This document shows positions 33 to 59,428 of a DNA stretch of 64,000 nucleotides, piece after piece (the stretch's first letter is position 1; each line of letters opens with the position of its first letter). Position numbers and translations under genes: made by a program. The stretch lies in the sequence record OZ346219.1, one strand, 5' to 3'. Origin of the DNA: a phage. The notes under the pieces were generated by a model, which did no database searches, was not told the origin of the DNA, and saw nothing but the letters and a program-made list of their open reading frames with translations.

Positions 33-2711
33 TTAAATGTCAAACAGGTCTGTAAGAGATGCCACTTTTTCATATTGCAGCTTTGCAGCCGTGGTAATGT
101 TCTCCAGTGGTTTGACGAAAGTCTTATTAAACAACAAAGGCCAGTCCAACCACTTCAACACCTCTGATTCAATTTCTGGAGGAATACGAGTACCAGACAA
201 CCAACCAAAACAGATTTCTCCAAACGGATTTCGATCTTTCAGCGGTACAATCATAACCTTCTCGCCTTCACGAATCGGATCTAGTCCGAATTTTCGAGCA
301 TTACGATTATAACACAATACACTCTTAACCGCATATGGACAACCCTTAATCGGATACCCGTTTGAATCGCTGTATTTCTGTAGGTTGTTTGCAGATGATA
401 CCGCAGCAACCTCAAGATAATCAAGTTTTCTAAATTCTTGCTCAAAAATACCGTAGTATTCCTGCAATGACTCTTCACCTTCCTGCAACATACGGCGAAT
501 ACATTCTTTCAGTGATTTCTGACATGCTTTAGGGGTGGAGCTACGTTGCGTTTCCAAGCCCATGATTTTTAGCTTAGGTTCAGCAAAGCGCGTTCCTTCC
601 ATATCCCAAACATTAAGAGCATAACGCTTTTTACCAGTCCAGAATCCACCGATACCCGCAGATTTCAATGGAGGACCAGCAATTGCCTCACGGTCCATAA
701 ACATCAAGTGCTCATAGTTGTTCATGTACTCGCATAACTCGCGATATCCCTTGTCGATAATAGGTTCCATTCGATGTTTACCGAAATTATCAAGGAAGTC
801 AACAAGTTTTTCGGTATCGTCGAAACGGTCTTCCCCGCCAACCTTATCAACAACATTGTTAACCAGCACATAAACGGAGTCAGTATCACAATAACGAACA
901 TATGCAAAATCGGTTGTTCCACAAAGCTCGTTTAAGTATTCGTTAATCTTACGCTCAATCCACTGAATTGCAAGCTGACCAAACAAGGTGATCGCACTAG
1001 CGTTACGGAGATCATAAAAACGGAATTTAGGATTCCCCAACGCACCATAAAGGGAGTTGATCAAAACTTTACGAGAAAGCTGGTTTGTATTGCACAAGAT
1101 CGACTCGTCTTTACATTCTTCCAGCAATTTCTCTAAGGCATCTTTACTTAATTCAGAAAGCATCGATTTAAACGCTTCATCAAAGTCGTGACGCACTTCA
1201 ACGCTATAGTTAATGGTTCCTCCATAAACATGATTTTCATCGTGTAGAATCGCTTTACAGAGTTCAGCATTGCGATCACATGCCAACATCATGTTTTTGT
1301 ACTGCTTACGCTGATCGAATACCTTTTTAATCTCAATCGGTACGATACCGTGAATATCTTTTCTATACATCCATCCGTTAGGCGAGCAAGAATACTCATC
1401 ACTCGGACGTGGTGCAGTTTTATTGATATACTCGTGCATCGGTGCAGCATCAAAAGATCCAGCGATTGTTTCAGGCGAAATATTAACCTGTCGAATAATA
1501 GATGGGTACAGACTTGTTAAGTCAAAGCTCATCATCCAACGGTAAGCATTCGGCACAGGTTCTTTTACGAATGCGCCTGGATACGTCTGCTTAGGCTGTA
1601 TCTTATTTTCCGGTACTACTTTACCCTCAGCTTTCAGAGATCCGAAGATAATAGCATCCCATACTTTCATCGGGTTATAAACATGGTTAAATTTAATCTT
1701 TGCATAGAAACATAGACTATACACAAGATCGATAAATCCACGCTTTTTATCAATCGCCAGCACACGATCAACGTCGCCGATGTTATAATCGATGTAAAGT
1801 TGATGGTTGTCATCACGCAATTTCTTTAACGGACCATCATAATCAACCTTACCGATTCCTGTCTCATATTCAGCAACATAATCTAATGCATATGTTGGTT
1901 GAGTCGTAAAGCTAAATTTCTTGTACAGGTCAATATAATCAAGGCTTTCGATCCCCATGATCGTAAATGCTTCACGCTCGTTGCCAAAATCATCCTGTGA
2001 GATTCGGGATTTAATCTTACCGCACGGGCTTAGACGGTTAGCGGTTCTACTTCCGAACTTATTACTGATACGTTTAATGATATATGGAATATCGAATGTT
2101 TCTGTGTTCCAGCCAGTGAAACCAACGGGTCGGTTTTCCTCAAAGAATCGGATGTATTCTAACAGCAATTCATCTTCTGTGTCATAGACGTTATAAACAA
2201 CGCGCTCTACAATATCAGGTCGAAGAATAGACTTGCTTGCTTCCCAGATTTCACCGTTTTTTCCTTTCAAATCAAATACAAAGAAACGATCATGTACGGA
2301 ATCATAATGCGTAATTGCATCGATAGGATATTTCGCTTCTTCTGGTTTAGGAAATTCCGGTGCAGTGACCTCGATATCAACCCATGCTACACGGATTTTA
2401 TTTCGGTCATATCGAATCTCGCCTTTATATGTATCGGACAGATAGGAGATGATAAAATCATCCATCCCTAGTGCCTCCTGCCCCATTTCTCCCATCTTTT
2501 TACGCCATTTGTTGGCCTCGTTCATAGAGGGGAATTTTTTAGCAATGCAAGGCTTGCCATAGATATCTTTATAATTCGTAACCATACCAGGCGCGGCATG
2601 ATGAAATAAAGTTGGCGTATATTCAACGTAACGCTCTTGTTCTTGTCCAGCATCATCAATATAACGCTCGTAGATCTTATCACCTACTCGCTCACATGAC
2701 AGAAAATACAT
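33..2711 (-). CDS. 43: DNA polymerase, family B (T4 gp43-like)
   Basis: 892 aa; N-terminus MYFLSCERVGDKIYERYIDD and blocks SLYPSIIRQVNISPETI, YCDTDSVYV match recalled T4/RB69 gp43; AGGAG 8 nt upstream of ATG at 2711 (track start 2741 is GTG); tail ...SLTDLFDI resembles the clamp-binding peptide. Confidence 0.95.
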   Translation of the reverse strand: MYFLSCERVGDKIYERYIDDAGQEQERYVEYTPTLFHHAAPGMVTNYKDIYGKPCIAKKFPSMNEANKWRKKMGEMGQEALGMDDFIISYLSDTYKGEIRYDRNKIRVAWVDIEVTAPEFPKPEEAKYPIDAITHYDSVHDRFFVFDLKGKNGEIWEASKSILRPDIVERVVYNVYDTEDELLLEYIRFFEENRPVGFTGWNTETFDIPYIIKRISNKFGSRTANRLSPCGKIKSRISQDDFGNEREAFTIMGIESLDYIDLYKKFSFTTQPTYALDYVAEYETGIGKVDYDGPLKKLRDDNHQLYIDYNIGDVDRVLAIDKKRGFIDLVYSLCFYAKIKFNHVYNPMKVWDAIIFGSLKAEGKVVPENKIQPKQTYPGAFVKEPVPNAYRWMMSFDLTSLYPSIIRQVNISPETIAGSFDAAPMHEYINKTAPRPSDEYSCSPNGWMYRKDIHGIVPIEIKKVFDQRKQYKNMMLACDRNAELCKAILHDENHVYGGTINYSVEVRHDFDEAFKSMLSELSKDALEKLLEECKDESILCNTNQLSRKVLINSLYGALGNPKFRFYDLRNASAITLFGQLAIQWIERKINEYLNELCGTTDFAYVRYCDTDSVYVLVNNVVDKVGGEDRFDDTEKLVDFLDNFGKHRMEPIIDKGYRELCEYMNNYEHLMFMDREAIAGPPLKSAGIGGFWTGKKRYALNVWDMEGTRFAEPKLKIMGLETQRSSTPKACQKSLKECIRRMLQEGEESLQEYYGIFEQEFRKLDYLEVAAVSSANNLQKYSDSNGYPIKGCPYAVKSVLCYNRNARKFGLDPIREGEKVMIVPLKDRNPFGEICFGWLSGTRIPPEIESEVLKWLDWPLLFNKTFVKPLENITTAAKLQYEKVASLTDLFDI

Positions 2712-2793
2712 AATATAAACTCCTTCACTTACGAAAGACACTCATTATAGGGGAATCGACTTAGTTTGTCAATACCCCTATCCCATCAGTATC

Positions 2794-3157: not shown

Positions 3158-3736
3158 TTACCACCTTTCTATAATCTTTTTAAGTCGTTTCCTTTCTGTC
3201 TGATTCTTAGTAACACCCGCCAAAAGTTCATCGGTCGCATACGGTTTAATGTGCTTCAATAACTTGTCCATATATCCCTTTTCATTAGCCAAATCGAGAT
3301 AAAACCGGGCGTCATCCATATTTACACAATATGCTTTCGCCACTGCCATTAAAACCAATTTTTGGTCCAATTCTTCTGTTAGTTTAGCCCATTTACCGTA
3401 TCGTTTCCCCTTAGAAATACTCTGTAAGAGATAATCAAAATGCATTTGATCTGGGAGGCCATGACCGATTAAATTCATCACATACGCGCTATATAGGCAA
3501 TCTGCGTGCTGGGAAAGAGCGGTGTTAATCCATCTCTGGTTATATGCAGAATTGTTTCCCACATTAACGCGCTGTTTATCTAAGGTGATATGATCCATCA
3601 GAGCAAATAATGCATTGTCGGTTTTCTCGGTGAATGTATCCGCTAATTCAGACACCTTTTCCCAATCACGAGAGCGCCATGCAATTTCATGCTCGTTTAA
3701 TTGTGTATCATCTTCACCGAAAAATTGACCTAACAT
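3158..3736 (-). CDS. 62: Clamp-loader small subunit (gp62-like)
   Basis: 192 aa; KRYGKWAKL and C-terminal KRLKKIIERW match recalled T4 gp62; start overlaps gene 44 stop. Confidence 0.8.
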   Translation of the reverse strand: MLGQFFGEDDTQLNEHEIAWRSRDWEKVSELADTFTEKTDNALFALMDHITLDKQRVNVGNNSAYNQRWINTALSQHADCLYSAYVMNLIGHGLPDQMHFDYLLQSISKGKRYGKWAKLTEELDQKLVLMAVAKAYCVNMDDARFYLDLANEKGYMDKLLKHIKPYATDELLAGVTKNQTERKRLKKIIERW

Positions 3737-4710
3737 TATACGAACTCCAATTCAACCATTAATTGCATTAACAAAAAGACAATGTGAATCTCTTTATCAG
3801 CCGCGTGTGCAAACATCTGATTATTTTCACCGATAATCTCGGTCAGACGGATAATCGACGCTGGCTTAACTTGAGTATACAACTCATTATAAAGTTTCTT
3901 GACAAATTGAGCGTATGTATTGGTATATCGCGGTGCAAGTTTACGCACATTAGCAAACTGTTTAGTTTTAAGTGCTTCCACCACATCTGTTACTTCGGTA
4001 TTGCTACTTTCGATAACCATGCTCAATACGCCAGCATCAATTTTGCCATGTTTAGCGTAGCGATCCAAAAGTTTCATTACGCGCCGGAAGTCTGGGAAGT
4101 TCTGCTTAACCAGTTCCGCTAATACGCGCATTTCTTCTACTGGCACACCTTCTTTATCAAGAATTGCTTTACACCGGACGATCATTTCTTTCATCATGCG
4201 AAGCTGATCATCTTTAGTCGGAGATCCAAACGTGATGGGGTCAAATCGAGATCGTAACGCTGGGATAATACCTTCTAGATCGTTTGCTGTGATAATGAAT
4301 GTCACGTTGTTTGAGTATGCCTCAGAGAAACTACGCAAGTGTCTTTGAGCATCAGCTAGCCCCGCTCGGTCATACTCATCGATAATAACAACTTTGCCTT
4401 TTTCTCTTTTTTCTTCATCGAGTGATACACTCTGCGCAAAGCGTGTAATCTCATCGCGGATAAAATCAATCTTACAATCTGCGCCGTTAACAAACAGATA
4501 ATCAACACCCACATCTTCGCAAAGCGCCTTAGCAACGGTTGTTTTACCAGTACCTGGCGATGGGCTATGCAGGATCATAGAAGGGATTCGGCCTTGCTTA
4601 ACAATCTGCGCGAAGATCTTTTTATCTGCTTCCGGCAGAATACATTCAGAAATTGATTTCGGACGGTATTTCTGTTCCCACTGAAACTCATTTTCATTAA
4701 CACTCAGCAT
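3736..4710 (-). CDS. 44: Clamp-loader ATPase (gp44-like, RFC family)
   Basis: Walker A SPSPGTGKTT, Walker B VIIDEYD; aligns to recalled T4 gp44; ATG 4710 with GAGGTGA SD (track start 4725 is GTG). Confidence 0.9.
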   Translation of the reverse strand: MLSVNENEFQWEQKYRPKSISECILPEADKKIFAQIVKQGRIPSMILHSPSPGTGKTTVAKALCEDVGVDYLFVNGADCKIDFIRDEITRFAQSVSLDEEKREKGKVVIIDEYDRAGLADAQRHLRSFSEAYSNNVTFIITANDLEGIIPALRSRFDPITFGSPTKDDQLRMMKEMIVRCKAILDKEGVPVEEMRVLAELVKQNFPDFRRVMKLLDRYAKHGKIDAGVLSMVIESSNTEVTDVVEALKTKQFANVRKLAPRYTNTYAQFVKKLYNELYTQVKPASIIRLTEIIGENNQMFAHAADKEIHIVFLLMQLMVELEFV

Positions 4711-4776
4711 ATAATCACCTCTCACAAATTACATCATTAAAACGGGGAGTATTTTATACTCCCCACAAACATTATA

Positions 4777-5463
4777 TTAGTCGGTGTAGCTGGAGTCAAG
4801 GTCACACGCGATCATATAAGATACGGTTTCACTTGCCAGCCATACAGCCTTACGGCGAGTGAAGCTCAGTTTGTAATCGCCGAAGTCAGTAGCAACCAGT
4901 TTCATGTTATCTTTACGAATAAAGAAATGGAAGTCTGCGGTTCCGGTATATTCGCCCATGTCAAGACAAAACATCTCATTAGGATTATTTTTGTCAATCT
5001 CTTCCCAACCTTTGATCATCAGACGACCATCAATCGGAAGAAATTCAAGGCGGTCCACTTTAAGCTGATTGCTCATTTTCATAAGCTGTTTCAGATCGTC
5101 GTTGCTCAGTTCGTAATCTACATCGCTTGCAGGTGGAGTAACTCGGCCTTTCGGTGATACGATAGCAGCAGCACTAGCACCAGGATAATTAATTTTCAGA
5201 CGATCATTAGACACACGAATGTTTCCGGTGCGGTCATCAACCGTAATATCTGCTTCATCGCCTACCAGATTCAGAATACCCAAGAAAGAGTTAAGATCAT
5301 AGATCCCAATTTCGTGTTCCAGTTCTTGATTCAGAGTCGCTTCACCATATACAACGTTTGTCATGTTTTTGGTGATCAGGACGTTTCCTTTTTTCAGGAT
5401 GATACCTGGGTTAATAGCGGAAAAGTTTTTCAGGGTAGCAATGGTTTCTTTAGTCAGTTTCAT
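4777..5463 (-). CDS. 45: Sliding clamp (gp45-like)
   Basis: 228 aa, same length as T4 gp45; MKLTKETIATLKNF aligns to T4 MKLSKDTTALLKNF; ATG 5463 with AGGTGA SD (track start TTG). Confidence 0.9.
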   Translation of the reverse strand: MKLTKETIATLKNFSAINPGIILKKGNVLITKNMTNVVYGEATLNQELEHEIGIYDLNSFLGILNLVGDEADITVDDRTGNIRVSNDRLKINYPGASAAAIVSPKGRVTPPASDVDYELSNDDLKQLMKMSNQLKVDRLEFLPIDGRLMIKGWEEIDKNNPNEMFCLDMGEYTGTADFHFFIRKDNMKLVATDFGDYKLSFTRRKAVWLASETVSYMIACDLDSSYTD

Positions 5464-10983: not shown

Positions 10984-11217
10984 TTATTTTCCTTCTGGGA
11001 TATAGTCGATGATTAAAGAAAATTCATCTTCTGATACATTATAGCTATGTGAGATTGTACCCGTAAAGACCTCAAGATCCGGTGATTTGATATTGCACGG
11101 ATCGATAATCACCGGAACGCCGCAATCTCTCAAAAATAATTTGGCGAAATACGGCACAAGGTCAGTTTCAAACTCTGCTTCTTCCAGCAAACGGGAAATG
11201 TTAATTTTCAATCTCAT
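10984..11217 (-). CDS. Hypothetical protein
   Basis: 77-aa ORF; start overlaps 3' end of gene 55; weak SD. Confidence 0.35.
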
Positions 11218-11734
11218 AAAATTGGTCCAAGCTAGGCAATTCCTCGGTCAATACATCTTCAACCTTTGGCGCTTTCGGTTTATTGACCGATTCCTCGTAG
11301 TTGTTGATTTTATCGTAAATGTCCTGTATGAATGCCTCATCAGCAATCTGGCACATATCAGCGTCGCGTTCGTCATATACATGATGCACAAAATATTTGT
11401 ATTTTGCGGCTGTCGCTGTTCTCTCTTTTTTAATGCGCTGTACAAAAGCATTAAAGCACGCTTGCGTGATGTAAGCATGAGGATTTTTATACTTTGTCTC
11501 GTCAAAATTAATCAAACCCTTGACCGCCGCTTCGATTCCGTCGTCGATCATTTCTTCGCGCCACGTTTGACTATAACCAGAAAAGTTAAAACGACGTGAT
11601 AGATTTTTAGAGATTTGCATAATTGCTAGGCCGATTTGATCGCTCATTGGAACTTGCCGACCTTCTGCTGCAATTTGTTGTTTCCAACGGCAAATTTCTT
11701 CGTAAAGCTCTTTATTGTTTACATAATCAGACAC
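11201..11734 (-). CDS. 55: Late-transcription sigma factor (gp55-like)
   Basis: 177 aa; [42 protein letters not shown] and tail [11 protein letters not shown] match recalled T4 gp55; apparent GTG start with GAGGGTG SD. Confidence 0.9.
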
Positions 11735-38805: not shown

Positions 38806-39132
38806 TTAGAAAGAAACAGTTTTCAAGAAATCCAGATTTTCAGTGCCGAAAACAGAAAAGTAGTGTTTTCCTTTTTCGGTTTTAGAGAAAGCGATTGTCT
38901 TCTCTACATGGTGACGGAAGCCAGACAGACGATCACCCAGGTCAAGGCGGCAAGCGTAAGTAGTGCCGTTTTCGAAAGTAACCTCGATTTGAGTTTTGTC
39001 ATATTCGCTTTCATAGGCTTTTGCTGCCGCGTCCTGTGCTTTACGCTCGAAGTCTTCGAAGTGGAATACTTCGTTTGCGTTAGCGAATACAGAAGATTCA
39101 GAGAAGATAACTTTAACAGATACTGGTTTCAT
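38806..39132 (-). CDS. Hypothetical protein
   Basis: 108-aa ORF; AAGGAGTATCAAA leader downstream of promoter 39175-39203. Confidence 0.45.
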   Translation of the reverse strand: MKPVSVKVIFSESSVFANANEVFHFEDFERKAQDAAAKAYESEYDKTQIEVTFENGTTYACRLDLGDRLSGFRHHVEKTIAFSKTEKGKHYFSVFGTENLDFLKTVSF

Positions 39133-55900: not shown

Positions 55901-55984
55901 GAACTTGTGGATAAACGGTTGAAGGATAATATAGGGAATCCACGCGATCCGAAGAATCCGACACAGAGGAAAATTAATGGCTAA
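52898..55984 (+). CDS. 7: Baseplate wedge protein gp7
   Basis: 1028 aa (T4 gp7 ~1032); position between 6 and 8. Confidence 0.8.
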   Translation: MIKAPSVTSLTIEKLSANQAYITWDDVGENFFYFVELAETRTRDGEIIPVDELSWVNLGYTAEQNWFEDKNLFPEYYYKFRVAVAAEGFEQSKWVETEEFQTFKTNAYNFSMMREFNLANEFIKEKFTYDNREYVKFNTDLIQASLMKEDFVFSPEYANMTNISNYIVVDENFHEIQDHIEKVCTDINRTMLAEMNGVLYLFERFQPIVKVSNDKGQSWKAYKAFNDRVGNPVSRTCVYQSKTTTYVLGYDRIFYGRQASDTRWRADDVRFSDDTITFAKVGDENDLGFDVEVFGVFSRLTGDTTKYAEAMACSDDYLWVGAKDVIRRIRLKNTPVDTVQGSPTFGEKIFDPDVIRVTGNDKAVIQKMDVIDGKLLVFVTGEVKQRYQDPTKPENVVPSDDAGVYLIGSDGLSFQRVFGNTPQEREYIQHGFSNMSTNGDEVFISHYNHHFESILPDPETAEKYELGEAVKYSQEPTYLTDKKIHQTTFRASYDDLRIWELGPQAYYNEADYTWMRRNGVRVWITNDNRPLVVYPEVIYTQEVDTSGILDQNRVNREVYDKGTVTCYLNNVKFEGFKQYASGVMFHKNTGEIIGFYQFNYRVRDQVGVYWKPTNVAFVAELQNQVREVPWVPVHYDREQDPDLRPLLNKMTPDSFLLENENFRKFSEYYLQFLSDGSGTYYNKLKNLIKNKYPREKDAYEYLWSEMNKRNIYADKNKRDAVVRFFESRKSDFYSTKGVEASYKFLFKLLYNEDVEIEVESQAGLEYDIVVSSTNIDEDIVGRTIYTPTGRANVTYLEREYEGGRLRWRVTIHNLIGRFEEGQVIKSEKTAFEGMILVGVRGKELLSSSIDYINRSRSQYTMKIKSALPVSRYANDVMRFVHPVGFGFIGVTLLTMFINSGLSMKHTETIIQSLKNYKFDSGLPSVYPDRVADLDVDGNIKKDPLTGKALYLTSPLIGEEFPVPPEYDQENSELFHGLKASERRFAMSPLFDQSAVTFSMFRELVDKRLKDNIGNPRDPKNPTQRKING

Positions 55985-56972
55985 TGAAAATAGTGTGATC
56001 TATCGCTCAATCATTACTAGTAAATTCAGAACGGAAAAACTTCTGAATTTCTATAATTCTGTAGGCGATGGGGCAAATCAAATTACAATTTATGGAACGT
56101 TTGGACGTTCGGAGCCGTGGTCAGAAAACGAAAAAGAGGTGGGCTTTGCCCCACCTTATCCGACCGATTCAACGGCTGGTGTTGTTGACATGTGGACCCA
56201 TATGATGGGGGCGGTTAAGATTAACAAATCACTTCTTGATGCGGTTATCCCTCGTAAAGATTGGGGTGATACCGGACAGGATAACCCGCGCACATTCTTT
56301 ATCAATGACATTGTTGTTGTCAACTCAGCACCATATAACCGAACTGATGTTGGTAGCGGCTGGATGGTGTATCGCGTAACCGATGTTCCTGATCGCGGTT
56401 ACTGCTCGATTTCAAGCATTGACGCTAAAGTAGAGTGTTTGAAGTTGGGCGGAAAGTGGACACCAACTCATGAATCAATCGCGCCACCAGTCGGGAAAGG
56501 CGATTCTATTGATATGGGTGACGGATATCGTTGGGAATATCTGTACACAATTCCACCTGATGCGGCGATCAACCGTTGCACCAATGAACATATTGTTGTA
56601 CCGTTCCCCGATGAACTGCGACAAGATCCGGCGCGTTGGGGCTATGACAATGTGATCACCTGGTATAATGACTATAATCTGCTTTATCGGCTGAAAGTAG
56701 TAACTTTGCGTTTTCAGGCTTATATGGACTCTGCGCAATTCCCAACTACCGCGTTAGTGGGTAATACTGGTTTCCGTCAGTTAAGCATTATCCTTAACCC
56801 ATTGGAAAAGAAAGCACGCCCTAGCGATCCAGACGTTAAAGCGGTCAAAGATAAGTACCGACCGCAAGACTTAGAGCCACACTCAGGCGAAATGATCTAC
56901 ATGGAAAACCGACAACCTATCGTTCGGTCATTAGATCAAACAGAACTTGTTTCTGTATTGTTTGAGTTCTAA
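55977..56972 (+). CDS. 8: Baseplate wedge protein gp8
   Basis: 331 aa; VIYRSIITSKFRTEKLLNFYNS, GFAPPYPTDS, CLKLGGKWTP, HSGEMIYMENR align to recalled T4 gp8. Confidence 0.9.
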   Translation: MANENSVIYRSIITSKFRTEKLLNFYNSVGDGANQITIYGTFGRSEPWSENEKEVGFAPPYPTDSTAGVVDMWTHMMGAVKINKSLLDAVIPRKDWGDTGQDNPRTFFINDIVVVNSAPYNRTDVGSGWMVYRVTDVPDRGYCSISSIDAKVECLKLGGKWTPTHESIAPPVGKGDSIDMGDGYRWEYLYTIPPDAAINRCTNEHIVVPFPDELRQDPARWGYDNVITWYNDYNLLYRLKVVTLRFQAYMDSAQFPTTALVGNTGFRQLSIILNPLEKKARPSDPDVKAVKDKYRPQDLEPHSGEMIYMENRQPIVRSLDQTELVSVLFEF

Positions 56973-56985
56973 GTGTATGATTTAA

Positions 56986-57016
56986 AAGCCAATTCTAGAG
57001 AGTTGGCTTTTTCTAT
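56986..57016 (+). terminator. Terminator after gene 8
   Basis: AAGCCAATTCTAGAGAGTTGGCTTTTTCTATTTT. Confidence 0.55.
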
Positions 57017-57024
57017 TTTGGGTG

Positions 57025-57052
57025 TTGACAATCTTGTCTGATAAGGTATAAT
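57025..57052 (+). promoter_or_regulatory. Sigma70-like early promoter inside the late baseplate operon
   Basis: Plus strand TTGACA-N16-TATAAT then leader GCTCACATCTAAACAACGGAGGA, same family as the leader at 18124-18151. Confidence 0.6.
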
Positions 57053-57081: not shown

Positions 57082-57339
57082 ATGGCACGTCGTAAATTTA
57101 CAGATAATTGTGAAGCAATTCAGGTATCCCCTTGCGGTTGGGATGTGATCGCGAACGGTGAAAAGATCGGAGAGATCATCGATCATACTCATTCATCACT
57201 AGCCGATTACACCGATGAACTATGGGAGGGTATCAACTTCATGAATGACACTAAACGATTCAAGACTATCGACGAAGCTATCTATTTTGTGTATAATCCA
57301 ACTTTCGGTATGTGGGGAACTAGAAAATGGCACGCGTAA
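57082..57339 (+). CDS. Hypothetical protein (cassette ORF 1)
   Basis: 85 aa; GGAGGATAAATT SD; begins MARR. Confidence 0.45.
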   Translation: MARRKFTDNCEAIQVSPCGWDVIANGEKIGEIIDHTHSSLADYTDELWEGINFMNDTKRFKTIDEAIYFVYNPTFGMWGTRKWHA

Positions 57340-57659
57340 ACATTAAACTACACTACACAATGGGTAAAGCTAAGTTCCCAATGCAAAAGCATTACTATGG
57401 TCTACGTGCACAAGATCCAAAACTCTATGGTACTCATTGGTTTTGTAAACATGATAACCAATGGCACACATACGAAGAAATGCACGAGATGATGAAACAG
57501 GGTATTGAATTGAGTTATTCTAATTATGACCATCGTATAACTTGCATTCGAAAATTGAAACGATGGATTCGTAAGAATCCGCAATTTAAAAACTTTGTGT
57601 TCTTTATGTCTCATGTTTATTTGGGACATAGCGTTACCGTCACAGCAAAGGTTAAATAA
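57327..57659 (+). CDS. Hypothetical protein (cassette ORF 2)
   Basis: 110 aa; basic, His/Trp-rich; overlaps ORF 1 by 13 nt. Confidence 0.45.
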   Translation: MARVNIKLHYTMGKAKFPMQKHYYGLRAQDPKLYGTHWFCKHDNQWHTYEEMHEMMKQGIELSYSNYDHRITCIRKLKRWIRKNPQFKNFVFFMSHVYLGHSVTVTAKVK

Positions 57660-58498
57660 TGGCACGACTTTCTAAACAAGAACAAAAATTACACGATCGG
57701 GTGATGGAGTTGATTAATTCAGATCGCCCATTGACATATGAAGAAAAAGAATTTTGCTATAATAACTATCATGGCGATGGTCTAGGCGGTTCAGGTGCAT
57801 TCTTTACCCCAGAAGGGCTTGCACGGGATTTTACCATCGATGCACATTGCACAGGAAAAGTATTAGATCTTTGTGCTGGGATCGGTCGCTTATCTTTTTG
57901 TATGTTACATCGTTGTAAGCCAGAAAAGATCGTATGCATCGAACTCAATCCAGAATTTGCGCGGATTGGCAAGCGACTATTACCGGAGGCAGAATGGATC
58001 ACCAGCGATGTATTCGAATTTGAGTCAAACGAAAAATTCGATGTGGTGATCAGCAATCCACCCTTCGGGAAAATCAATACAACCGACACAAAGGATGTAT
58101 TTGAGTACACTGGCGGTGAGTTTGAATTTAAGGTTATGACGCTAGGGCAAAAGTTTGCTGATGTTGGCTATTTTATTGTTCCTGTGGGTTCCGCTGGTTT
58201 TGCTTATTCCGGCAGACCTTATTATGACGGGACCATGAAGTCTAATAAATATCTAAAATGGAGCAAACAAACTGGTTTGGTGACTTATGCCGGATGTGGG
58301 ATCGATACATCAATCTATCGCGATGAATGGCACAGTACCAACGTTTTAACAGAAGTGGTTGAGGTTCGGTATTACGAGAAAGAAGCCGTAGAAGCGCCTA
58401 AATCACGCCCTAACGAACAAATAGAAGAAAGTAAGGAGATTACCTTACCGAAACAGGAAAGCGAGTCTGGGACGCTCTCAGATTTGTTTGACATTTAA
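57659..58498 (+). CDS. N6-adenine methyltransferase-like protein (gamma-class motif order) with clamp-binding-like tail
   Basis: 279 aa; motif X GAFFTPEGLARDF, motif I VLDLCAGIGRL, motif IV ISNPPFG; tail ...TLSDLFDI nearly identical to gp43 tail ...SLTDLFDI. Confidence 0.7.
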   Translation: MARLSKQEQKLHDRVMELINSDRPLTYEEKEFCYNNYHGDGLGGSGAFFTPEGLARDFTIDAHCTGKVLDLCAGIGRLSFCMLHRCKPEKIVCIELNPEFARIGKRLLPEAEWITSDVFEFESNEKFDVVISNPPFGKINTTDTKDVFEYTGGEFEFKVMTLGQKFADVGYFIVPVGSAGFAYSGRPYYDGTMKSNKYLKWSKQTGLVTYAGCGIDTSIYRDEWHSTNVLTEVVEVRYYEKEAVEAPKSRPNEQIEESKEITLPKQESESGTLSDLFDI

Positions 58499-58501
58499 TT
58501 A

Positions 58502-58529
58502 TAAGCCGTCCTTGTGGGCGGCTTTTTTG
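58502..58529 (+). terminator. Terminator closing the methyltransferase cassette
   Basis: AAGCCGTCCTTGTGGGCGGCTTTTTTG. Confidence 0.6.
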
Positions 58530-58538
58530 TATGTATTT

Positions 58539-58546
58539 TATAAATA
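58539..58546 (+). promoter_or_regulatory. T4-type late promoter (TATAAATA) for gene 9
   Basis: Exact TATAAATA ~28 nt upstream of gene 9 ATG, just after cassette terminator. Confidence 0.55.
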
Positions 58547-58573: not shown

Positions 58574-59428
58574 ATGGCACAAGTTCCAAAGAAAAGAATA
58601 GACACAGGTACTGTCGGCAATCCATCGACTGGCGATATCTTATATGATGGTGGTAATAAAATTAACGATAACTTTGATTCAATATATGACGCATTTGCTG
58701 ATCAGCGGTTTAAAGACGTAGACCACGGAGTGGGAAGAATGGTTATTCATGCAACCGGATACTATCAGAAGCATCCACGTCAAAGCTACGCGGGTTCCGC
58801 TGTTGAGATTGGGAGTCTACACGATATCGATACAACTCAAGGCGCACTTATTGCTATTCTACCTAAAGCAAAGGTCGGCGAGGGTGTTGTATTCATAAAT
58901 AGTAACGGTAGCCTTTCAACGACGACACCGCTCAATATTCGAACTCAAGCAGGTGATTCTATTAGCGGTTATTCCGGTGATGCTACAATAACACAACCAT
59001 TTTCAAAAGTCACTGTTTGGTGTACTGCCGTTGAAGGTAGTCGCGTAACATGGCGATTGGGTATCGAAAGTATGTTTACCGATACAACAACGCCATTAGA
59101 TAAAACAGTTAACGTAACTGGAGTAGCAACAAACGTTGCTATTGCCGCAAAAACAGAATATGTTTCCATCAAATTATTAACTACCGCTAGCAATACATCC
59201 GGTTCAAAAATGCGTTCAAGTGAAACGCTACTGATGATTGATTCTAAAGCCGGAAAAGTTTATGCGACGGAATATGCAGTTTTGCAGAAGACAGAAGATG
59301 AACTATACACGGTTCGTTATTTCATCGGTTCCGGCGATAAAGTATATGCAGAGTATAAGGCTACTGGCGAAAATATTCGTTTAGCAGTTAAAGCCGTAGA
59401 CACTATTAAAATCGGGGTTGCTACATGA
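58574..59428 (+). CDS. 9: Baseplate wedge / long-fibre attachment protein gp9
   Basis: 284 aa; KKRIDTGTVGNPSTGDILYDGGNKIN, HATGYYQKH, FINSNGS, KIGVA align to recalled T4 gp9; late promoter TATAAATA at 58539-58546. Confidence 0.85.
   Translation: MAQVPKKRIDTGTVGNPSTGDILYDGGNKINDNFDSIYDAFADQRFKDVDHGVGRMVIHATGYYQKHPRQSYAGSAVEIGSLHDIDTTQGALIAILPKAKVGEGVVFINSNGSLSTTTPLNIRTQAGDSISGYSGDATITQPFSKVTVWCTAVEGSRVTWRLGIESMFTDTTTPLDKTVNVTGVATNVAIAAKTEYVSIKLLTTASNTSGSKMRSSETLLMIDSKAGKVYATEYAVLQKTEDELYTVRYFIGSGDKVYAEYKATGENIRLAVKAVDTIKIGVAT

Follow-up and report, generated by a model that had tools for sequence, protein, structure and literature searches.

Sliding clamps act as "tool-belts" for polymerases, repair enzymes, and transposases and, in T4 and Mu, for transcription factors too. 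The C terminus of the T4 DNA polymerase, gp43, is reportedly needed for holoenzyme formation, in work said to be that of Berdis et al. in 1996. The clients of the gp45 clamp in T4 and RB69, which are gp43, gp33, and gp55, have a hydrophobic motif, [ST]-L-x-D-[LM]-F-[DG]-[FI], at the extreme C terminus on a flexible tail. T4 gp55 and gp33 bind gp45 via a C-terminal LDFL motif (PMC9690074). Here we describe a methyltransferase (MTase) gene in a 64,000-nucleotide (nt) stretch of phage DNA (sequence record OZ346219.1; the whole stretch is called the window below) whose product ends in the same way, with TLSDLFDI. This client would be an MTase, not a polymerase or a transcription factor, and its docking on gp45 is predicted. 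In the full-text literature we found no MTase among the gp45 partners and no clamp motif on a phage or bacterial MTase, most subscription-journal papers being beyond the search. From comparative sequence evidence, we put the probability that TLSDLFDI is a functional gp45-binding motif at about 0.78; enzymes of the MTase family probably travel with the replication clamp and methylate freshly synthesized DNA.

The source phage is a Krischvirus, an RB49/Phi1-like T4-type phage. Along the window come gp43, the clamp and clamp-loader genes, gp46/47, and gp55, then a long early region, and then the baseplate genes gp5 to gp12. The features on which the argument depends are the following.

57659..58498, plus strand: MTase open reading frame (ORF), 279 amino acids (aa), counterpart of RB49 ORF143w; class I S-adenosylmethionine-dependent amino-methyltransferase
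57659..58393, plus strand: folded catalytic core, aa 1-245; AlphaFold2 predicted local distance difference test (pLDDT) >90 over most of it, predicted template modeling score 0.81
58394..58471, plus strand: low-complexity Glu/Ser/Lys/Pro-rich linker, aa 246-271; predicted to be disordered, fast-evolving
58472..58495, plus strand: C-terminal motif TLSDLFDI, putative gp45 clamp-interaction peptide; stop codon at 58496-58498
33..2741, minus strand: gp43 DNA polymerase, with Pfam DNA_pol_B and exo domains; its last eight codons (36..59) encode SLTDLFDI
4777..5463, minus strand: gp45 sliding clamp, the proposed docking partner; Pfam gp45-slide_C and DNA_PPF
3158..4725, minus strand: clamp loader genes gp62 (3158..3736) and gp44 (3736..4725), collinear with Phi1 genes 62 and 44, with coordinates shifted uniformly by 15938
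11201..11734, minus strand: gp55 late sigma factor (phrog_234, E=7e-63), with a second, looser clamp-type tail

Positions 58472..58498 read ACG CTC TCA GAT TTG TTT GAC ATT TAA, which is T-L-S-D-L-F-D-I-stop. The C terminus of gp43 is ...QYEKVASLTDLFDI, and the last eight residues of the two proteins are identical at six positions and differ by Ser/Thr swaps at the other two. The 3' ends of the genes agree at 22 of the final 30 nt, some codons differing synonymously (CTT/CTC, GAC/GAT, CTG/TTG), and show no resemblance farther upstream. The resemblance sits at the level of the peptide motif, not of the DNA. For the same reasons (22 of 30 nt, synonymous differences, no upstream similarity), a recent origin of the MTase tail by gene conversion or copying from gp43 is not supported. 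The first-pass annotation of this DNA, made from the letters alone, had said that the MTase tail "copies" that of the polymerase, which is correct for the peptide motif but not for the nucleotides. Its descriptive claims stood up otherwise: the MTase ending was confirmed codon by codon; the gp43 and gp55 tails were as it had given them and gp45 was where it had placed it, according to the ORFs and the Pfam and PHROG assignments; and the acidic, Ser-rich linker that it had noted before the tail is present.

We then asked how unusual the tail is. The gp43 tails across the T4 superfamily form a coherent family, [ST]-L-x-D-[LMIF]-F-[DG]-[FIM], of which ASLSDLFDI, ASLADLFDF, ATLFDMFDF, STLDFLFG, SLEDIFGF, and SLEDLFDF are examples. 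A log-odds position-specific scoring matrix (PSSM) was made from 91 unique gp43 last-8-mers of other T4-like phages, with relatives of at least 80% identity left out. The MTase tail scored 15.2 to 15.5 bits and the window's own gp43 14.1 to 14.5 bits; that is, the MTase tail fits the T4-type polymerase tail consensus better than its cognate gp43 does. Among 1809 six-frame ORFs of the fetched loci, the sole score above that of the MTase tail belonged to another polymerase, and the next nonpolymerase score was 9.0. Among the 1650 ORFs of at least 40 aa in a Krischvirus genome equivalent (the window plus the rest of phage Phi1), the next-best score was 6.3. For a random C-terminal 8-mer, an exact calculation puts the chance of scoring as high as the MTase tail at 7e-7, which amounts to about 2e-4 for a genome of about 280 proteins. 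A regular-expression scan of the 309 stop-to-stop window ORFs of at least 60 aa found that only gp43 and the MTase end in L.DLFDI, and the same two were the only matches among the 1650 ORFs; the first-pass claim that no further protein ends this way is borne out in both sets. The last seven residues of the MTase tail are those of gp43 of Providencia phage PSTCR6, which ends in ASLSDLFDI. Ranking first among nonpolymerase ORFs, the MTase has at its C terminus the motif of gp45 clients, [ST]-L-x-x-[LMIF]-[FYLM].

Other C termini in Krischvirus resemble the motif to lesser degrees. That of gp8 (window 55977..56972, plus strand), ...LVSVLFEF, was rejected as a clamp motif because gp8 is a structural baseplate protein and the sequence scores only about 4 bits on the PSSM; a gp8 relative at L014 2558..3550 ends in ...LVSVIFDF, and the likeness of gp8 to a clamp tail is probably a coincidence. 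The Krischvirus DNA ligase (Phi1 gene 30, L005 9834..11330) ends in ...TVKEVFDV, a weak DLFDI-like resemblance worth 4.7 bits. A 108-aa LPD25-domain protein (PF18840, phrog_14916; window 38806..39132, minus strand) ends in ...GTENLDFLKTVSF; it carries a T4-type "LDFL" six residues from its C terminus and may be another gp45 client.

The position of the tail in the protein also agrees with that in gp45 clients. The linker, YEKEAVEAPKSRPNEQIEESKEITLPKQESESG, is acidic and rich in Ser, Pro, and Lys. In an AlphaFold2 model built on a 45-sequence alignment, aa 248-279 have pLDDT values <50 and no secondary structure, and the PHROGs profile that the protein matches (phrog_3820, "DNA methyltransferase," E=3e-117) spans aa 1-250 only. 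Thus, the tail is predicted to lie on a disordered, flexible segment outside the fold. The proposed partner is at hand, since the cognate gp45 and the gp44/62 loader are both encoded in the window. The window's gp45 matches the RB69 clamp structures 1B77 and 1B8H at E=8e-42 and T4 gp45 (1CZD) at E=4e-40, and the C terminus of the window's gp43 aligns column by column with that of RB69 polymerase, ...AAKLDYEKKASLFDMFD(F). The structure 1B8H is reportedly the RB69 gp45 clamp with the polymerase C-terminal peptide bound, from Shamoo and Steitz in 1999.

The first-pass annotation had named a survey of homologs as a check, and we carried it out. The MTase protein is 95 to 99.6% identical to those in 56 Escherichia and Shigella phage records and 90 to 95% identical to those in 3 more; RB49, Phi1, Cognac, and GoldenSnicker are among the phages with an MTase at least 90% identical to the window's. 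A scan of viral contigs for near relatives of the MTase locus gave three loci. For comparison with the window MTase, the protein was divided into core (aa 1-240), linker (aa 241-271), and tail (aa 272-279). One relative (L023) has 96% identity in the core, 77% in the linker, and 8 of 8 residues in the tail, as in the near relatives of the window MTase. Another (P0002), which is 69% identical overall, has 73% identity in the core (176/240) and 32% in the linker (10/31) and keeps 7 of 8 tail residues (TLTDLFDI). The tail was therefore kept, at 7 or 8 of 8 residues, while linker identity fell to as low as 32%, which is the conservation looked for among orthologs of a gp45 client. A functional short linear motif that ends a fast-evolving spacer leaves just this signature, a kept tail on a diverging linker. 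In two more distant proteins (P0003 and P0004, 62% identical over the alignment), both encoded in the gp8-gp9 slot, the tail is degenerate, with 2 of 8 and 5 of 8 residues, though still polymerase-tail-like. P0003 ends in KTLDFVDFSEI, akin to the T4-type polymerase tail TLDFLFG, and P0004 in GSLSMFDI, akin to the RB69-type SLFDMFDF. The metagenome sample that yielded P0004 also contains a Krisch-like polymerase whose C terminus is ASLSDLFDF (P0271), but the pairing is circumstantial because the P0003 and P0004 contigs end before gp43.

Observations on gp43 itself came from the same material. In a Krisch-like phage (L015 7879..11020, metagenome ERZ27260015), gp43 is split into ORFs of 496 aa and 339 aa, with about 630 bp containing a 55-aa ORF between the halves. 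Many of the protein-database matches to the gp43 C terminus are fragments of some 390 aa called "gp43B."

Clamp-type tails are frequent across the MTase family. An exhaustive profile-free search gave 150 family representatives at 50% identity or less, 140 of them with a complete core. In 46 of the 140 the protein ends within 8 residues past the core, leaving no tail, and the other 94 are longer. The pattern Q..LF occurs in the last 12 residues of 30 of the 140 representatives, against 6 of 1809 control ORF C termini and none of 2769 core windows (Fisher P=3e-30); the control C termini come from six-frame ORFs and not from curated proteins, the core windows are 12-residue stretches of the family's own cores, and the 140 representatives are not strictly independent phylogenetically, although their linkers are unrelated in length and sequence. 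The dipeptide LF is present in the last 12 residues of 46 of the 140, compared with 6.4% of controls, and 19 proteins end exactly in LF. Examples are ...SQLSLFDAA, ...QEQLTLF, and ...SQLALF and the following, with the elements that carry them.

P0119: ...QQLDLFGEAA, lambdoid phage with cI, Cro, NinB, and the replication genes O and P
P0150: ...KKQLTLF, integrated element with integrase and relaxase
P0127: ...EQLSLFDAP, phage-like contig
P0216: ...PQLSLFA, plasmid with ParA/ParB and relaxase
EVB67_057, Rhizobium phage RHph_TM3_3_14B: ...SPQLSLFGDAA, temperate phage in which the MTase's early module also encodes a Pol III beta subunit

These Q..LF tails match the bacterial beta-clamp-binding motif, QL[SD]LF, which was reportedly defined by Dalrymple et al. 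in 2001. Clients of the beta clamp that carry the motif are Pol II (which ends in QLGLF-COOH), Pol IV, DnaE, Hda, MutS/L, and MuC of phage Mu. The full pentapeptide, Q-[LFAV]-x-L-F, is present, for example, in P0122, P0124, P0127, P0150, P0216, and EVB67_057 of the Rhizobium phage. The elements listed above are replicons that depend on a beta clamp. To judge from these sequences, the C terminus of the MTase family repeatedly carries what would be a clamp-binding peptide, apparently of the gp45 type in the Krischvirus clade, whose phages supply gp45 themselves. The tail appears to be matched to whichever clamp the replicon uses.

Further clamp-motif-like sequences were seen around these loci. 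The sliding clamp (DNA polymerase III beta subunit) of RHph_TM3_3_14B, at L029 7892..8962, shares its early module with two LF-tailed MTases. An N6_N4 (PF01555) adenine MTase, of an unrelated family, adjoins the family MTase at L029 15206..16003 (EVB67_056) and at L010 6922..7746. Homologs of the PF01555 enzyme (P0390-P0509) have Q.D[LM]F, a motif of the same type as QADMF, with which E. coli DnaE binds the beta clamp, exactly 10 residues past the last conserved helix in 86 of the 120 closest, all of which are >62% identical. Half of these homologs have a second [LM]F motif near the C terminus (PADMFAANDN, PASLFAANDN; control rate, 6/2711). Clamp motifs may be common on orphan MTases of mobile elements, the PF01555 case being a lead only, given sequences >62% identical. 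In the L010 element that carries P0150, a small ORF upstream of the MTase (212 aa from stop to stop) ends in ...FAGPQQLMLF, which is also like a beta-clamp motif.

The enzyme itself is of the amino-methyltransferase (N6-adenine/N4-cytosine) type, with motif I and an NPPF motif IV in a Rossmann-like fold. Motif I is LCAGIG (VLDLCAGIG) and motif IV is NPPFG; both are invariant in the 45-sequence alignment, the invariant residues being C72-A73-G74-I75-G76 in motif I and N133, P134, F136, and G137. The Pfam matches are MTS, Methyltransf_25, and Eco57I, indicating a small class I MTase domain. Foldseek matches of the model were generic class I MTases, including M.TaqI, CamA, and HsdM. A PDB search found no near homolog (the top match was RsmC, E=5e-4), and an NCBIfam search gave only subthreshold HemK/RsmC-type matches. 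The RB49 counterpart appears in PMC1524935 merely as "Methyltransferase small domain," and a literature search found no other description of ORF143w. A second annotated Krischvirus DNA MTase, ORF189 of Phi1 (L005 2998..3714; 238 aa, early region), ends in ...AVFEANKDL and has no clamp-type tail.

Several observations weigh against the conclusion that the tail serves to bind gp45. First, the sequence and fold matches just described are to generic NPPF/NPPY amino-methyltransferases that include rRNA and protein-glutamine enzymes. Because the matches (RsmC, PrmC/HemK, M.TaqI) are weak and generic, homology assigns no substrate; we infer that the substrate is DNA from the clamp motifs and from the co-location of family members with other DNA MTases on mobile elements. 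Second, gp43-type tails and beta-clamp motifs have a D-L-F core in common, and hence sequence alone cannot prove which clamp the MTase tail binds. Third, the homologs in RB43, RB16, KP15, and Phynn-type phages, which use gp45, are 45 to 50% identical and carry a distinct tail, [LF][FT]F[RTV]IE, after a Pro/Glu-rich linker. Examples are NLFTFTIE, DLFTFTIE, ELFTFRIE, ENFTFRIE, and ATFDFRIE. These tails are unlike those of the phages' own gp43 (SLNTLFGDDW, SLNDLFGDW), gp33 (TLDDFM), and gp55 (TLEMFL); in RB43 and KP15 in particular, the MTase tails NLFTFTIE and DLFTFTIE do not copy the gp43 tails SLNTLFGDDW and SLNDLFGDW. Taken as a gp43-like tail, the RB43-type FTFRIE was rejected, with scores of -4 to -13 bits on the gp43 PSSM. 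The loci and proteins of this group are as follows.

L001 18258..18992: RB43 MTase
L006 7139..7915: KP15 MTase
P0097, P0103, P0104, P0106, P0110-P0112, P0114, P0117, P0120: proteins of the RB43/KP15 type

The alternating hydrophobic residues of this tail suggest a beta-strand addition motif.

Fourth, no recognizable tail motif was found in the MTase homologs of Aeromonas phages CC2 and 65, Sinorhizobium phage phiM7, and a Vibrio straboviral phage, nor in those of Yersinia phage fHe-Yen9-04 and a Variovorax phage, and the nearest enterobacterial prophage copies are tail-less. Among the T4-like phages examined, the gp43-type tail is limited to the Krischvirus-like clade. The existence of tail-less homologs means that clamp tethering is an optional accessory and not a requirement for enzyme function. 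The nearest relatives of the Krischvirus MTase by core are those tail-less prophage enzymes (55 to 61% identity), which suggests that the gene was acquired horizontally and then gained a tail, or had one converted, to fit its new replisome.

We weighed three other explanations for the tail. The leading Gln of the beta-clamp motif is absent from TLSDLFDI and the spacing is different, so that the pentapeptide is not there; this argues against binding to the E. coli beta clamp (DnaN) instead of, or besides, gp45, even though family members commonly end in Q[AQPL]DLF[GSA]... and the window tail, with its S-D-L-F, is only a few substitutions from that type. The tail could be a slightly degenerate descendant of a QxDLF-type motif, and the enterobacterial prophage relatives do suggest an origin in an element that uses the beta clamp. 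However, its match to gp43 extends beyond the D-L-F core to [ST]-L at positions -8/-7 and D-I-COOH at -2/-1, it outscores gp43 itself on the PSSM, and replication in T4-type phages relies on a phage clamp and loader, which the window encodes. We consider DnaN an improbable target.

A little less probable again is a regulatory role, in which the MTase would occupy gp45 in competition with gp43, gp33, or gp55, thereby modulating replication or the changeover to late transcription. Such competition is conceivable in that gp45 is common to all three proteins (PMC9690074), the window's gp55 has a related tail, and MuC of phage Mu titrates the beta clamp when overexpressed (bioRxiv 10.1101/2025.01.04.631326). 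Yet the family has kept its catalytic motifs intact and unvaried, clamp motifs occupy the same tail position in members on many non-T4 elements, where a gp33/gp55 system is absent, and the tail-less homologs fit an accessory targeting device. Equally hard to credit is a tail with no relation to clamps (a degron, a packaging signal, another replisome contact that recognizes the polymerase tail, or a functionless remnant of chance or recombination): the different conserved tail of the RB43-type homologs shows that the position can host other motifs, but chance is excluded at about 2e-4 per genome, the tail is kept while the linker diverges, the 22 of 30 nt with synonymous changes show that it is not a recent recombination scar, and the independent appearance there of beta-clamp motifs in roughly one-fifth to one-third of the family's lineages points to clamps specifically.

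Binding of the tail to gp45 as a targeting device also agrees with the genome context. Between the late baseplate genes gp8 and gp9 lies an inserted cassette of three ORFs, the last of which is the MTase.

56984..57011, plus strand: intrinsic terminator that follows gp8 and ends the late unit upstream; 12-bp stem, T-run
57025..57052, plus strand: perfect sigma-70 promoter, TTGACA-16-TATAAT (12/12), which drives the cassette
57082..57339, plus strand: small cassette ORF, 85 aa; phrog_16603 or phrog_12630 for this pair of ORFs, with no function assigned by PHROGs
57327..57659, plus strand: small cassette ORF, 110 aa, directly upstream of the MTase
58503..58524, plus strand: intrinsic terminator ending the cassette; 9-bp stem, 6 GC pairs, TTTTTT; 5 nt past the MTase stop
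58539..58546, plus strand: T4-type late promoter TATAAATA for gp9
58574..59428, plus strand: gp9, Pfam T4_gp9_10_N

In metagenomic Krisch-like relatives, the MTase likewise lies between gp8 and gp9, but the small ORFs vary; the pair is absent from L012, and L014 has one 154-aa ORF instead. With its own promoter and terminator, the cassette is presumably an autonomous, early transcription unit. The 12/12 sigma-70 promoter points to early expression by unmodified host RNA polymerase, and an early unit would make the MTase available in time for DNA replication. The first-pass annotation had left a choice between coupling to the replication fork and coupling to late-transcription complexes; because the cassette's sigma-70 promoter is probably early, the former is favored and the latter is less so. 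Its larger proposal, that the enzyme is tethered to the sliding clamp, gains support of a comparative kind.

These considerations suggest a mechanism. The cassette would be transcribed early from its sigma-70 promoter, yielding the MTase. A disordered Glu/Ser/Pro-rich linker of about 30 residues would hold the tail away from the catalytic core, and its flexibility would let the tail insert into the hydrophobic pocket of gp45, the same pocket that gp43 uses. The clamp would be loaded by gp44/62 at primer-template junctions and nicks, with clamps staying behind the fork on new DNA. As gp45 is a trimer with three sites, the MTase could share a ring with the polymerase or take orphan clamps. One-dimensional sliding would then bring the core to nascent duplex DNA and raise the rate and completeness of methylation. 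Early transcription and insertion of the tail are the steps with sequence evidence behind them; the clamp-sharing, sliding, and anti-restriction steps are drawn by analogy with gp43/gp33/gp55 and DNMT1-PCNA (PMC9690074). RB49-group phages have canonical, unmodified DNA (PMC8056088), and the likely benefit of the MTase is therefore escape from host restriction; methylation would probably protect an RB49-type genome with unmodified cytosine. The sequences themselves show the motif match with its statistics, the predicted disorder, the pattern of conservation, the promoter and terminators, and the excess of clamp motifs in the family; from these we infer that the tail contacts gp45 physically, that the enzyme acts on DNA and not on RNA or protein, and that methylation serves against restriction.

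A tail that works in this way would explain how a phage whose DNA is unmodified can methylate its genome quickly enough to outrun host restriction, since the enzyme would be delivered to all nascent DNA without a three-dimensional search. The MTase would be a new client class for sliding clamps, and the family would provide a natural example of a short linear motif swapped with a change of clamp, from beta to gp45, within one enzyme family. There is possible relevance to phage therapy and engineering, as Krischvirus phages are therapeutic candidates and anti-restriction capacity shapes host range. More broadly, we lean slightly toward the existence of an unrecognized, widespread class of clamp-tethered orphan DNA MTases on phages, plasmids, and integrative elements, in which a C-terminal motif on a disordered linker is exchanged to fit the replicon's clamp: QL[SD]LF for bacterial or phage DnaN and a gp43-like motif for gp45. 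If this is true, methylation of mobile-element DNA is physically coupled to replication, in prokaryotic and viral convergence with DNMT1-PCNA. The PF01555 MTases with QxD[LM]F-type motifs indicate that the clamp-tethering principle may reach beyond one family.

Among known systems, the proteins with a bacterial beta-clamp motif are mirrored by the homologs of the window MTase, whose QLSLF, QLTLF, QLALF, and QxDLF stand at or near the C terminus as in Pol II. The window MTase differs from them in having no Gln, a six-residue spacing (L-S-D-L-F), and a gp43-type tail. MuC of phage Mu is a precedent for phage proteins that exploit the beta-clamp motif. The closest prokaryotic precedent, as far as the available text of its description goes, is the pair of plasmid MTases M.EcoGIX and M.BceJIII, which are orphan mobile-element enzymes whose activity is tied to replication. 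They are linked to Pol I, with which they co-purify (Fomenkov et al. 2020, PMC7736820); in the same portion of that source, which reports no clamp motif on these MTases, its authors consider another host protein as a possible intermediary, speculate that the sliding clamp might fill that role, and note that Pol I interacts with the sliding clamp. The likeness is by that description, and whereas the link there runs via Pol I, the window MTase has the clamp motif on the enzyme itself.

The comparison extends to eukaryotes. The PCNA-binding motif of Dnmt1 raises methylation of PCNA-bound DNA (PMC9690074). DNMT1 is a large C5-cytosine maintenance enzyme with its PCNA-interacting peptide (PIP) box (QxxLxxFF) in the N-terminal region, whereas the window MTase is a small NPPF-type enzyme with a putative viral-clamp motif at its C terminus; the latter has no C5-MTase Pfam domain and no PIP-box sequence. 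The two are evolutionarily unrelated, and their likeness is convergent and functional only. In that functional sense, DNMT1-PCNA is the closest analogue, a DNA methyltransferase brought to newly replicated DNA by a short clamp-binding peptide.

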